Below are positions 1-3,894 of a stretch of DNA of 64,000 nt, piece by piece. The stretch is from assembly GCF_030013595.1 (NCBI RefSeq), contig NZ_CP122768.1. The stretch is one strand, 5' to 3'. The position numbers and the translations under genes were made by a program. Every line of letters begins with the position of its first letter. The stretch's first letter is position 1. This stretch comes from Escherichia coli (GTDB lineage Bacteria; Pseudomonadota; Gammaproteobacteria; Enterobacterales; Enterobacteriaceae). The notes beneath the pieces were generated by a model. The model was not told the origin of the DNA. It did not search any database and saw only the letters and a list, made by a program, of their open reading frames with translations.

Positions 1-883
1 TTCTCTTTTTAAACTGTATGTCTTCTGGATTTCCCACTAACTGACTGAAATCTCCTTTCATAACTCTTTCGCTTGTTTCAAAGAGCTGTATTGCTATCGA
101 GTCGATTAATTCCTTTTTGGACAGAGATGCTTGTTCATAAAATTTGGTGACTAACTCTGTTGGTAACTTTCTTGAGACGACTTTAATGGACAGTCTCTGA
201 AATAGGTAAGGTGCCACCACGCCCACACTGAAAGGGTGAATCCTCCCTGGATTTAATAATTTTATTGTGACGTTTTCAAAAACTAGCTCATTGATTTTAC
301 TATTTATGAATTCCATTAAATACTTATCTAATGATAATGTTACCGACGCAACCGCTTCTATCACTTGTTTAAATGGCTCGCCTTTCAAGGATTTAAAAAA
401 CTCTTTGTTATAACCAAAGAAATCCACAAAACCTAAATTTATTCGATTTTCTTCTTTAGTATTTGAAATGCGAATTTGAAGTTGTTTTAAGTCTTCATCG
501 GTCAAGTATTTTAAACCATAGTCATCAAGCGCGTTACGTATAACTTTATCTGCAGATTCTAAGTCGATTACAGTTTTTACATTAAAAAACAATGATAACA
601 ATGAATCATACTTATGAACTCGCAAGGTTAAATCTGTTGCATTTGATGCGGTTACATTTATACGTCTCAAAAGATCAATAACTTTACTAATTGGTAGGCT
701 GTTTTCAAAAATTTTGAATGACTCGTATTCAGATACAACATCTTTTATATACTTACTGATAGTATGAGACTTTATTTCCACCTCAACTTCGGTTGAGTAA
801 GAATGAATTAGTGAGTTTGTAGTTTCAGCGATGTCATTTGATACATACAACTTATATTCGAAACAATCAGGAGCGGGAAGCAA
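1..883 (-). CDS. hypothetical protein, partial (continues past left window edge); AT-rich accessory gene
   Basis: Open minus-strand frame from 883 to position 1 (>290 codons, translated by hand); no in-frame ATG near the 5' end, candidate GTG start at 779-781 after GAAG; different frame from the upstream ORF; ~30% GC. Confidence 0.4.
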   Translation of the reverse strand, partial: MLPAPDCFEYKLYVSNDIAETTNSLIHSYSTEVEVEIKSHTISKYIKDVVSEYESFKIFENSLPISKVIDLLRRINVTASNATDLTLRVHKYDSLLSLFFNVKTVIDLESADKVIRNALDDYGLKYLTDEDLKQLQIRISNTKEENRINLGFVDFFGYNKEFFKSLKGEPFKQVIEAVASVTLSLDKYLMEFINSKINELVFENVTIKLLNPGRIHPFSVGVVAPYLFQRLSIKVVSRKLPTELVTKFYEQASLSKKELIDSIAIQLFETSERVMKGDFSQLVGNPEDIQFKKR

Positions 884-1233
884 CTATTATCAATAATGGA
901 AAACAATAAAAATTTAATTATTTCTCTTAATGCTTGCGGTCTAGTTATTCTACCTTGCATTTTTTTACATTGTATTAAACCACTTACAACACCGTTATGG
1001 TATAGCACGCAGTCGCGTCCTCTTTCAGAAACTCCTTGCATTAAAGATATTGAGGATATATTTTTATGCTTTCCATCTTCAATTTCGTTCTTTACTAACA
1101 AATAACATAGCAACTCAAATTCTCGATCACCTAATTCTGAAAAGGGAAGCAATCCGATACCAGAATCTATAGTCCATGGTCTATATCCTGATTGAGCCTC
1201 GATATTAATTTGTTCGTCACTGATTTTTTTCAC
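808..1233 (-). CDS. hypothetical protein with PD-(D/E)xK-like motif (GRD...16 aa...IQCK)
   Basis: 141-aa ORF, GTG start at 1231-1233 with AAGGAG 6 nt upstream; AT-rich; motif recognised by eye only. Confidence 0.45.
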   Translation of the reverse strand: MKKISDEQINIEAQSGYRPWTIDSGIGLLPFSELGDREFELLCYLLVKNEIEDGKHKNISSISLMQGVSERGRDCVLYHNGVVSGLIQCKKMQGRITRPQALREIIKFLLFSIIDNSCFPLLIVSNISCMYQMTSLKLQTH

Positions 1234-1248
1234 TTAAATCTCCTTCTA

Positions 1249-1277
1249 ATCTTATTGACCTACTCCCTACATTGTAA
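1249..1277 (-). promoter_or_regulatory. putative sigma70 promoter (TTACAA-17-TAAGAT) for the 808..1233 ORF
   Basis: -35/-10 hexamers with 17-bp spacer read on minus strand just upstream of the RBS. Confidence 0.3.
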
Positions 1278-1548
1278 CAGGGGATGATGATAAGGTGTAT
1301 CTTTCGAGCTATAAGCACGATAAATAAGTGATTAAAAATGACTCTTTAAACTATTTTAATTTAAAAAATTAATTGTTAGTTCTAATTATGGTATGAGGGC
1401 ATTTTCGGCATAGTTCTAACCATATACTTTGGTAAAAATGACTGTTACGGAACAGACCATAGTAATGCCTGCTATTGGCACGGAGCGGGCCGCCTGAGCG
1501 CCGTGGGGTCTGCAAACGGTAAGCATACCGATAACTATACGCTTGGCC

Positions 1549-1968
1549 TTAGTAACTTTTGCTCCCCTCAATAAATCCGCCATCTTTTATCGGACTGCAA
1601 TGTCCTTCTTCATCAATCAGTTGCTCGTCTTTCAGGTAGGTATATCGATAGATAATTGAGCCATTATCCATCTCACCATTGGTTCGTTTCATTAGGAGAG
1701 TAAAATGTAACGGGCTGTCCCTATATCGAGCTATTCCATGAATATTGGCAAGTACCTCATATTGACGCTCAGGTGATAACCCTTTAAATACATCGAGATA
1801 TCCATGGAATGTTCCATAGAGTGAAGAAGTGTAGATCAGTCGCTGCTCTGGACCAGTAACTTTAAGAGTAATTTGTTCACCCGTATTACAGGTTAGCTTG
1901 GCGGGAAATGTCTCAGCCTGAGCAGAAGAAATAGTCAAGCTTAAAATTATCAGGTAGCAATATTTCAT
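1549..1968 (-). CDS. small secreted/periplasmic protein of unknown function
   Basis: ATG at 1966-1968 gives 139 aa with N-terminal signal peptide MKYCYLIILSLTISSAQA; two Cys in mature part; longer track ORF has an implausible N-extension. Confidence 0.5.
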   Translation of the reverse strand: MKYCYLIILSLTISSAQAETFPAKLTCNTGEQITLKVTGPEQRLIYTSSLYGTFHGYLDVFKGLSPERQYEVLANIHGIARYRDSPLHFTLLMKRTNGEMDNGSIIYRYTYLKDEQLIDEEGHCSPIKDGGFIEGSKSY

Positions 1969-2250
1969 GTGATTAGAATGTCCAAAACTAACATGTATAC
2001 TCGGGATTCTATAACTAGTTGGATGTAGACCCAAGATGTATTGGACTATTCTTCGGTTGTAGTTGGTCAAATCATATATTTTATGTCAGCAATGTCTACT
2101 TTTGGCACATAGCAGACCAGAGACACTGGCGTAAAGCCATGGAGGATCGGTGGGAGGAGGTAAAAATCCTCTCATGCAAAAAATACGCAAAATCGATAAC
2201 AGTTGGAAATCATTCAATACTCGCACTATCGGAAGTTCACCAGCCAGTCG

Positions 2251-2298
2251 TAGCACGTTCTTGCATATGACGTGGCTACGGGTTTCGAGACCGACCCG
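2251..2298. repeat. degenerate direct copy (~85%) of the pin 3' end plus its downstream hairpin
   Basis: Aligns base-by-base with 3272..3320; contains imperfect dyad GTAGCACG..CGTGGCTAC. Confidence 0.5.
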
Positions 2299-2472
2299 AT
2301 CATCAAACGAAACATAAAATTAGCTCACATTATGAGGAAAGGTATCTTTTTGCGCTATGTAAATTCAAAGGGTTAGCCTCATTTTCCCGATGGCTTTCTC
2401 AACACTACTAGTTGTGAGCCCTTGCAATGTTCATTAATATACGTCTCACAAATAATTCACAGATATTGCAAA

Positions 2473-3246
2473 ATGGATATTACTGAGTTTCCTTCTGGAG
2501 TAATTGAACACCTTGGCTGGTATGTATACCGATTGATTGATCCTAGGGACGGAAGCACCTTCTATGTAGGGAAAGGCAAAGGTAACCGCGTATTTGCCCA
2601 TATGCGCGGTGAAGTGGCAGCGGCTGATGATGACGAGTTACTGAGCAACAAGCTAAAGCAAATCAGAGAAATAAGATTAGCGGGACTTGAAGTTATCCAC
2701 GTCATCCATCGACACGGAATGACTGATGAAAAGACGGCGTACGAAGTTGAAGCAGCACTTATTGATGCCTACCCTGGGTTAACGAATATCATGAATGGTG
2801 CTGGCAGCAATGAATTCGGCGCCGCGCATGTCAAAGAGTTGATAGCAACATATCAACCCGAAACCATAACATTTCATCATAAAGCATTAATGATTTCCGT
2901 TAACAGAAGTGCAAAGGATTCAGAGCTTTATGATGCGGTTCGATTTAGCTGGCGCATTAATGTCTCTCGCGCCAGCCAAGCAGAAGTCATTCTTGCTACT
3001 GTAAGGGGGATCGTTCGAGGGGTTTTCATTGCTGATAAATGGCTCAAATCAACACGTGAAAATTTCCCTACGATGAAATACTGGGACGAAGATCCTGACT
3101 TTGAGGCAACACAAAGTTCTCGCTATGGTTTTGAAGGTCGAGAAGCCCCACCTGAAATAGCAAATCTTTATCTTGGAAAAAAAATACCAGATGAATTAAG
3201 AAAAAAAGGAGCTATGTCCCCGGTCCGTTACTCACCTAATTTTTGA
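2473..3246 (+). CDS. GIY-YIG nuclease family protein with ~140-aa C-terminal domain of unknown function
   Basis: N-terminus has GIY-YIG-type motifs (YVYRL ... [14 protein letters not shown] ... YEVEAALI); ATG at 2473, no obvious SD; moderate-to-low GC. Confidence 0.65.
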
Positions 3247-3271
3247 GTCTTTAAGTGATAAGCATAAACCG

Positions 3272-3320
3272 CAGCACGATCTTGCATACGACGTGCTACG
3301 GTTTCATTTATCTCCGACCG
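3272..3320. terminator. hairpin between convergent GIY-YIG gene and pin (likely bidirectional terminator); partner of repeat at 2251..2298
   Basis: Dyad AGCACG-13 nt-CGTGCT followed by GGTTTCATTT; overlaps last pin codons. Confidence 0.45.
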
Positions 3321-3894
3321 GAAACTTCTTATACAAAGTCGATACACCCACATCGTAGATAATCGCCACCTTCTGGCGAGGAGTTCCTGCTGCAATTAAT
3401 CTTCCGGCTTGTGCCCATTGTTCTGGTGTAAGTTTGGGACGACGTCCACCAATTCGTCCCTGTGCGCGAGCAGCTTCCAGTCCAGCTTTTGTTCGTTCAA
3501 CAATCAGTTCACGCTCCATTTCAGCCAGGGCACCCATCACATGAAAGAAAAAGCGTCCCATTGGTGTGCTGGTATCAATTGAATCCGTCAGACTATGAAA
3601 GTTGATGCCTCGTTCGCGCAACTCCTCCACCAACACGACAAGATGCCGCATACTACGCCCCAGCCGATCCAGCTTCCAGACAACCAGAGTGTCACCTGCC
3701 GATAATGTCCTGAGCAGTTTTTTCAGTCCCGGCCTTTCGGACTTTGTGCCGCTTATCTTGTCTTCAAAAATCAGCTCGCATCCTGCACAGTTCAGCGCAT
3801 TACGTTGTAGATCTGTGTTCTGGTCATTTGTTGATACGCGTACATAGCCAATAAGCATGGTAGATCCCCCTGACAAAAGCAGGAATGATGCCAT
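3304..3894 (-). CDS. pin: DNA invertase Pin (Gin/Hin/Cin serine recombinase family)
   Basis: 196-aa ORF begins MLIGYVRVSTNDQNTDLQRNAL, near-identical to recalled e14 Pin. Confidence 0.95.
   Translation of the reverse strand: MASFLLLSGGSTMLIGYVRVSTNDQNTDLQRNALNCAGCELIFEDKISGTKSERPGLKKLLRTLSAGDTLVVWKLDRLGRSMRHLVVLVEELRERGINFHSLTDSIDTSTPMGRFFFHVMGALAEMERELIVERTKAGLEAARAQGRIGGRRPKLTPEQWAQAGRLIAAGTPRQKVAIIYDVGVSTLYKKFPVGDK

Follow-up and report, generated by a model that had tools for sequence, protein, structure and literature searches.

We analysed a 64,000-nucleotide (nt) stretch of the Escherichia coli contig NZ_CP122768.1 (assembly GCF_030013595.1), hereafter the window, whose left end carries a small cargo island beside pin, the serine invertase gene of a prophage. 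The reading that we favour, to which we assign a probability of about 85%, is that an intact copy of the anti-T4 restriction gene PD-T4-3, also known as CMoRE, lies after pin within a mosaic of independently acquired genes, together with a frameshifted gene for a candidate effector nuclease of 488 amino acids (aa). A first-pass annotation of the window, made without database searches, had described the island as low in guanine–cytosine (GC) content, free of virion genes and the most plausible place for an undescribed defence locus. Its first two points were borne out. The composition profile gives a GC fraction of 0.30–0.45 across window 1–3400, compared with 0.55–0.60 in the baseplate and tail genes from ~5600 on, and the genes left of pin (window 1–3300) are not virion genes. 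Of the four cargo genes that it counted, the nuclease motif in one is real, but that open reading frame (ORF) and the large ORF at the window edge are parts of a single gene. The island comprises three cargo genes, one of which either is a pseudogene in the window or contains a sequencing error (Table 1).

The annotation had recognised a GIY-YIG protein next to pin, which is indeed present (257 aa), and had proposed that the island proteins be searched against PADLOC profiles. In that search (PADLOC-DB 2.0.0 of 2023, as in all PADLOC scans here), the protein matched the PD-T4-3 profile (PDLC04031) end to end, with residues 1–256 aligned to profile positions 1–255 of 256 (E = 2.2e-140); it is also a full-length match to phrog_5356. 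Compared with the crystallised enzyme of E. coli O157:H7 (PDB 9U75), it is identical at 254/257 positions and collinear over all 257 residues. The only substitutions are E55, Q169 and N196, the latter two being the sole changes in the C-terminal half. The tyrosines of the GIYxY-YIG motif, Y17, Y19 and Y31, are all kept (...LGW-Y17-V-Y19-RL...TF-Y31-VGKG), the acidic loop reads D52-D53-D54-E55 instead of the DDDD of 9U75, and the collinear alignment places a modification-sensing domain at the C terminus of the protein. The gene is carried by 851 of 5426 complete E. coli genomes. By profile match and by identity, then, the GIY-YIG gene is PD-T4-3/CMoRE, an already characterised anti-T4 restriction enzyme that was found in 2022 and whose structure and biochemistry followed in 2026, and the expectation of an undescribed locus fails for it.

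PD-T4-3 was discovered by functional selection in the E. coli pangenome in 2022 and was later renamed CMoRE, for Cytosine Modification Restriction Endonuclease; its structures (PDB 9U75 and 9U7U) and biochemistry date from 2026 (PMC12923530). CMoRE is a type IV endonuclease that cleaves the hydroxymethylcytosine (hmC) or glucosyl-hmC (ghmC) DNA of T-even phages, working on this modified DNA as a dimer or tetramer, with an N-terminal GIYxY-YIG nuclease masked by an acidic autoinhibitory loop and a C-terminal domain that recognises 5hmC or glucosyl-5hmC (PMC12923530). It protects as a single cloned gene (PMC12923530; bioRxiv 2024.12.20.629700) and is one of just two systems whose activity in a native clinical isolate has been demonstrated (bioRxiv 2024.12.20.629700). 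From the 99% identity, we infer that the allele in the window would show the same hmC- and ghmC-dependent cleavage and protect against T-even phages. Its C-terminal domain would bind 5-hydroxymethyl- or glucosyl-hydroxymethyl-cytosine in incoming T-even DNA, the acidic loop would hold the nuclease off ordinary DNA, and the dimer or tetramer would cut the modified phage DNA, so that the lysogen and its prophage would be guarded against Tevenvirinae.

The first-pass annotation had placed the island in the slot that mcrA occupies in the e14 prophage. This equivalence is exact, because BLAST homology between the window and K-12 e14 breaks off at window 3302, the pin stop codon, directly beyond which mcrA lies in K-12 (gene order ...stfE-pinE-mcrA-icdC). 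The window pin is 96.6% identical to K-12 pinE up to the stop codon, where homology ends, and pin is the conserved anchor of the slot. As the attachment site and ~230 nt of the 488-aa gene are beyond the left edge of the window, we used the closest complete genomes (98–99% identity to window 1–3900) to see past it. In strain TK3896, the prophage ends with the island, after which chromosomal paoD/yagP follow, and int is found at the opposite end, by thrW; the other end of the window prophage abuts icd, the e14 integration site. The cargo thus has the position of an e14-type slot: it starts at the stop codon of pinE, and the integrase is at the other end of the prophage. Window 1–3300 is the cargo end, proximal to the attachment site, of a prophage of the e14/SfV type, which has an HK97-like head, a Mu-like contractile tail and an invertible tail-fibre segment.

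Related prophages carry differing cargo distal to their pin or tail-fibre genes (Table 1), in agreement with the annotation's view of a variable, defence-rich slot. The RelA/SpoT-like protein of strain T16R partially matches the PADLOC candidate PDC-S33 (E = 2e-8), and the ‘restriction endonuclease’ of 21EVA has no PADLOC match; both genes are further candidate defence genes. The pin- or tail-fibre-distal end of e14/SfV-type and lambda-type prophages acts as an exchangeable defence slot whose defined breakpoints are the pin stop codon, the hairpin repeat and a ~100-bp element at the end of the late region. Since it carries, in different strains, CMoRE, McrA, a type II restriction–modification (RM) pair and a RelA/SpoT-like gene, new systems may reasonably be sought among its unannotated genes. 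In open-access full text we found no paper that catalogues the pin-distal slot as a hotspot, which does not prove that there is none. In O157:H7 strain 3384 (locus L015, 1–2429), a separate islet comes after the slot and carries an integrase, an ABC-three-component system and an AAA ATPase; a second defence element is hence stacked beside the prophage end.

The PD-T4-3 gene sits in a cassette that some prophages have and others, collinear apart from it, lack; two copies of a hairpin repeat form its bounds. Strain B1S11 shows the empty site: it has no PD-T4-3 cassette and one repeat copy, and its flanks overlap by 38 bp. In p11A, the cassette adjoins tfa in a lambda-type prophage that lies at ssrA and lacks pin. 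The segments shared among loci start at ~2092–2099, ~2263–2276 or 3302–3306, a pattern from which we infer that the cassette moves by recombination at its conserved flanks. The right repeat lies between the convergent PD-T4-3 and pin genes and folds strongly in both senses (−23.6 kcal/mol, z = −5.5, in the pin sense; −17.4 kcal/mol, z = −4.4, in the other); it looks like a bidirectional terminator. The left, degenerate copy is part of a ~100-bp conserved non-coding element that in HK97 lies between tfa and the sib/attP sites, a position that identifies it as the end marker of the late (tail-fibre) region. PGAP annotates a ‘capsid protein’ pseudogene at ~2184–2270; we rejected it as coding, as the segment is this conserved non-coding phage element. 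A copy of the element with 85–89% identity is also found on the chromosome, in the ecpE-ykgJ intergenic region (locus L001, 4273–4356; locus L026, 2413–2474). The hairpin 3' of pin (3270–3326, minus strand) partially matches the 3' terminator stem-loop of the Rfam family RF02799, CssrB, at 32 bits compared with a gathering threshold of 76; CssrB is a Shigella chromosomal small RNA that may derive from the 3' end of the pin transcript in a related prophage. The Rfam scan of window 1–4400 gave nothing beyond this sub-threshold match, and in a scan for promoters and terminators the number of sites did not exceed that in shuffled sequence.

A GIY-YIG gene flanked by direct repeats, with a single repeat copy at the empty site, could also be a mobile homing endonuclease, which would account for its presence or absence between the repeats, and the protein does have a match to the PHROG homing-endonuclease family phrog_314 (E = 0.0022). 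We consider this explanation highly improbable. The phrog_314 match is weak compared with the full-length matches to PD-T4-3 (E = 2e-140) and phrog_5356; the protein is 99% identical to a modification-dependent restriction endonuclease with a C-terminal hmC sensor that is not a homing domain; and the repeat is a pre-existing terminator hairpin instead of a homing target split within a gene. On these grounds we rejected the homing assignment and retained PD-T4-3/CMoRE.

Whether the cargo genes work together had been left open by the first-pass annotation, and their distribution indicates that they do not. They are adjacent, uniformly low in GC and located in a slot that holds defence genes, and the entire block recurs in 23 genomes, as would be expected if three or four genes formed one multi-gene defence system in which the GIY-YIG and Mrr-type nucleases cooperated with the secreted protein. 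Only 29 genomes have the 488-aa gene, however, compared with 851 for PD-T4-3; in B1S11, the distal genes are present and PD-T4-3 is missing; homologues of the 488-aa and secreted proteins occur alone among unrelated neighbours; PD-T4-3 defends as a single cloned gene; and it lies on the strand opposite to the other two genes, with conserved breakpoints on both sides. Because the cargo genes assort independently, we rejected a single operon or system, to which we give very little credence, in favour of a mosaic.

The 139-aa protein illustrates this independence. It is the small secreted protein that the annotation had noticed, and it does have a Sec-type signal peptide. The protein is predicted to be a periplasmic eight-stranded beta-barrel resembling avidin and streptavidin; neither Pfam nor NCBIfam gave anything significant for it, and no significant RNA structure was detected downstream of its gene. 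Its homologues are confined to Enterobacterales, where they lie at other prophage or mobile-element ends, either beside umuDC/SRAP cargo or in an integrative element that also encodes a relaxase. Elsewhere they never adjoin a 488-aa homologue, and they occur without PD-T4-3 or the 488-aa gene. The 139-aa gene is a separately mobile, independent accessory gene.

The third cargo gene is broken in the window. Its TK3896 homologue is a single 1467-nt ORF encoding 488 aa (WP_000723924.1), relative to which the window has a one-base deletion near 882 (AAGCAAAC -> AAGC-AAC), which shifts the frame by −1 at codon 118. In frame 0, residues 1–117 agree fully with the intact protein, and the remainder is stop-free in another frame to the window edge; the truncated frame, at 808–1233 on the minus strand, carries the PD-(D/E)xK motif ERGRDC...IQCKK. 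The deletion marks either a recent pseudogene or a sequencing-error site, and if the frameshift has inactivated the gene, it probably contributes nothing in this strain. An assembly or sequencing error, with an intact and active gene behind it, would fit a single-base change within an AAA run, a frame that stays open for more than 290 codons downstream, two parts that are near-identical to intact alleles (two base substitutions in the gene, one changing D to H) and an intact gene in most of the 29 other genomes. Nevertheless, AAA is a short homopolymer, and inactivation recurs naturally, as split versions of the gene are also found in strains B1S11 and 1297KP. We therefore regard an error as unlikely, although far from negligible, and treat the gene as inactivated here.

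The intact 488-aa protein consists of an N-terminal Mrr-type PD-(D/E)xK nuclease, a linker subdomain and a helical C-terminal region. In the family alignment, the catalytic residues E40, D74 and Q88-C-K90 are all invariant. In an AlphaFold 2 model (predicted local distance difference test score, pLDDT, 84.8), the N terminus forms an alpha/beta domain, the linker subdomain is mixed and the C-terminal part is a long bundle of helices. The nuclease domain combines a restriction-endonuclease-like fold with a catalytic D...(E/Q)xK motif. Pfam Mrr_cat (PF04471) was detected in 15 of 38 family members at E ≤ 0.1. The family forms ~120 clusters at 90% identity, uniformly ~485 aa long, from Enterobacterales, Pseudomonas, Acinetobacter, Vibrio, Burkholderia and Bacteroidota, and a query with the C-terminal region alone retrieved 193 representatives at 50% identity among 1.84 billion proteins. 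In E. coli, the gene is present in 29 of 5426 complete genomes, always at least 99% identical.

Searches for relatives pointed to nucleases of bacterial immunity. The top Foldseek matches of the model are structures (tetramers) of LmuA from Lamassu, at low template modelling (TM) scores of 0.24–0.29, and LmuA is also the only PADLOC match, a weak one (E = 0.0036, residues 36–181). A second group of proteins, 700–1365 aa long, shares just the nuclease-plus-linker module, to about residue 235. Seven of the ten that we scanned match the PADLOC LmuA model (E down to 5.5e-9), and two relatives carry a NACHT/NB-ARC NTPase with TPR or SNaCT5 C-terminal sensor domains. This module is thus common to NACHT/STAND and LmuA-matching proteins, which suggests that it is a recurrent effector of bacterial immunity. 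We rejected membership of LmuA itself, as LmuB and LmuC are missing, and kept LmuA as an analogy. In Pfam searches, no P-loop or NACHT domain was detected in the 488-aa family, NACHT being confined to distant relatives of the N-terminal module. Foldseek found no convincing PDB fold match for the C-terminal ~250 residues, a PDB sequence search with the family profile returned chance-level matches only, and searches with the two NACHT-fused relatives yielded nothing useful. Neither Pfam nor the fold search detected a modified-DNA reader domain; as the helical C-terminal domain has no match, it may be a new reader. The accessions WP_000723924 and WP_001333214 were absent from the full text of the literature and from the DefensePredictor supplements, and a domain-centric screen (NAR 2026) left out single genes.

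In all eight contexts that we compared (E. coli, Enterobacter, Kluyvera, Acinetobacter, Stutzerimonas, Pseudomonas, Burkholderia and Pectobacterium), the 488-aa gene is solitary, with no SMC/ABC-type neighbour of the LmuB/LmuC kind conserved. In Kluyvera, it lies within an intact P2-like prophage, antisense between gpV (baseplate spike) and gpS (tail completion); in Enterobacter, it is in a P2-like remnant; and in Pseudomonas cerasi, it is at the gpD end of a P2-like prophage. The Stutzerimonas, Burkholderia and Acinetobacter homologues are in small islands, which have an integrase close by in Stutzerimonas and Burkholderia and at one of four Acinetobacter loci. The family is found in accessory slots of P2-like and e14/SfV-like prophages across Gammaproteobacteria, and also in Burkholderia and Bacteroidota. 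The gpV–gpS site of Kluyvera and relatives (loci L032–L034, 8001–9452) is separate from the old/tin and Z/fun hotspots of P2; at this position P2 has the non-essential low-GC gene orf30. The E. coli pangenome screen discusses two P2 hotspots, old/tin and Z/fun.

From this context together with the slot-mates of the gene, we slightly favour a prophage-borne defence or exclusion function for the 488-aa protein. By analogy with Cap4, LmuA and the nuclease-NACHT/Avs proteins, it may be a single-protein effector–sensor in which the helical domain would keep the nuclease inactive until a phage cue triggered oligomerisation and then DNA cleavage. The chances are about even that the family founds an undescribed single-protein anti-phage system, with a private helical sensor–regulator replacing NTPase or SMC partners. 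The nuclease could instead be non-immune, serving its carrier phage in host-DNA degradation, anti-defence or recombination, or acting as a selfish addiction toxin: nucleases have varied roles, the protein has no match to a validated defence family, its gene is carried inside otherwise intact P2-like prophages, and it is frameshifted here and in B1S11 with no obvious consequence. This is a possibility that we take seriously but lean away from, as the gene is transcribed against the late genes on either side of it in P2-like prophages, gave no match when all 50,697 deposited phage genomes were searched by megablast, is patchy (29 of 5426 E. coli genomes), has no conserved adjacent small antitoxin-like partner and encodes a nuclease module common to NACHT/STAND immune proteins and LmuA.

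Several points weigh against our interpretation of the island as a whole. Activity of the PD-T4-3 allele in the window, which differs at E55, Q169 and N196, is an assumption, and a sequencing error in the short A run could leave the 488-aa gene active here. The evidence for how the cassette moves consists of the breakpoints. The putative defence role of the 488-aa protein is drawn from domain analogy and genomic context; the protein has no significant Pfam, NCBIfam, PHROG or PADLOC family match, and its similarity to LmuA is weak both in sequence (E = 0.0036) and in structure (TM 0.24–0.29). As for the undescribed locus that the first-pass annotation had in mind, the sole uncharacterised candidate defence gene of the island is the one that is frameshifted.

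Beyond the island, the tail module holds a second low-GC insert, a 176-aa ORF between the DNA-circularisation and tape-measure genes, for which PADLOC gave no match. The tape-measure gene (11761–13593) appears to be split into ORFs of 255 aa and 339 aa, which in TK3896 are one 1908-nt gene. At the far end of the prophage, an IS10-like transposase and a truncated integrase abut icd, which places the prophage at the e14 site and shows that its early region is gone. A near-identical island in TK3896, strain 20, B1S11 and T16R abuts paoD/yagU, with the TK3896 integrase at thrW. This arrangement suggests integrase-module swapping or rearrangement between prophages.

Table 1. Features of the window, and cargo of the corresponding slot in other genomes (ORF, open reading frame; RM, restriction–modification).
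Feature	Position	Strand	Remarks
488-aa family gene, broken	1–1233	−	runs past left edge; ~77 C-terminal codons outside window
Truncated frame left by frameshift (‘nuclease-motif ORF’), 141 aa	808–1233	−	117 authentic + 24 out-of-frame residues
139-aa secreted protein	1549–1968	−	Sec-type signal peptide MKYCYLIILSLTISSAQA/ETF, cleavage after AQA
~100-bp conserved non-coding late-region end element	2178–2286	.	88–90% identity to HK97, HK106, 2H10, Stx phages
Left repeat copy (degenerate)	2249–2286	.	part of ~100-bp element; repeat search
PD-T4-3 cassette, mobile between prophage types	2263–3304	+	bounded by two hairpin-repeat copies
PD-T4-3/CMoRE, 257-aa GIY-YIG protein	2473–3246	+	PADLOC profile and PDB 9U75 identity
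Right repeat copy, 36–38-bp repeat, strong hairpin	3270–3305	.	repeat family D4
pin (pinE-type serine invertase)	3304–3858, ORF to 3894	−	ORF list; PGAP calls homologue pinE, start at 3858
176-aa ORF, N-terminal membrane/signal segment, low GC (0.34)	11139–11669	−	phrog_5485 (unknown function), E = 1.5e-107
IS10-like transposase	24354–25562		right of terminase and HNH genes
Truncated integrase	25605–26519		
icd	26633–27883	−	then rluE, nudJ, mnmA, hflD, purB
K-12 e14 slot cargo			mcrA
O157:H7 cargo distal to PD-T4-3			AraC regulator
T16R cargo distal to PD-T4-3	4270–5544 of locus L016		424-aa RelA/SpoT-like ‘GTP pyrophosphokinase’
21EVA cargo distal to PD-T4-3	3260–4171 of locus L029		303-aa ‘restriction endonuclease’
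Combat11I9 cargo distal to PD-T4-3			FlxA-like genes
EJN001 cargo distal to PD-T4-3			IS1; pin replaced by acyltransferase
O103:H2 and p11A cargo distal to PD-T4-3			complete type II RM pair, REase_II E = 3.5e-233, MTase_II E = 3.8e-230 (PADLOC)

The active defence gene of the window encodes an enzyme that is already known and has a solved structure, and its type of location is known as well, so that there is little novelty in it. What remains novel is the 488-aa Mrr-nuclease family and, to a lesser degree, the defined breakpoints of the slot. Conserved, solitary, mostly linked to prophages or integrases and unrecognised by Pfam, NCBIfam and PADLOC 2.0, the family is a candidate system; if our reading of it is true, the pin-distal slot is a usable place to look for further defence systems.

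In nuclease fold and catalytic motif, the 488-aa protein agrees with LmuA, Cap4 and the nuclease-NACHT/Avs proteins, judging from a predicted model and a weak LmuA match, and NACHT/STAND proteins bear relatives of its nuclease-plus-linker module as N-terminal effectors. Unlike LmuA, Cap4 and Avs, it comes without LmuB/LmuC and without a SAVED or NTPase partner or domain.

CMoRE of O157:H7 and the gene in the window share the GIYxY-YIG motif, the acidic loop, the C-terminal sensor and the single-gene layout by pinE, and differ at the three residues E55, Q169 and N196. EcoKMcrA of K-12 e14 occupies the same slot as CMoRE, between the stop codon of pinE, which it directly follows, and the attachment site, but is unrelated in protein, combining an HNH nuclease with an NEco reader, whereas CMoRE combines a GIY-YIG nuclease with a reader of its own; moreover, the e14 slot holds mcrA alone and the window slot two further genes. 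McrA is also a type IV enzyme, directed against modified cytosine, and the slot therefore holds two unrelated proteins of one functional class. CMoRE is the direct functional counterpart of McrA in the same slot.

As a site, the pin slot resembles the old/tin and Z/fun hotspots of P2 and those of P4, which are likewise fixed sites with conserved phage-gene bounds and interchangeable, unrelated low-GC defence genes, but its anchor is different, consisting of pin or tail-fibre assembly genes and a ~100-bp element by the attachment site. Phage Mu has a comparable arrangement in gin-mom, where accessory cargo related to DNA modification or restriction lies directly after a Gin/Pin-family invertase at the genome end. 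The direction of action differs: mom provides anti-restriction DNA modification, whereas the cargo of the window would restrict incoming phage DNA.

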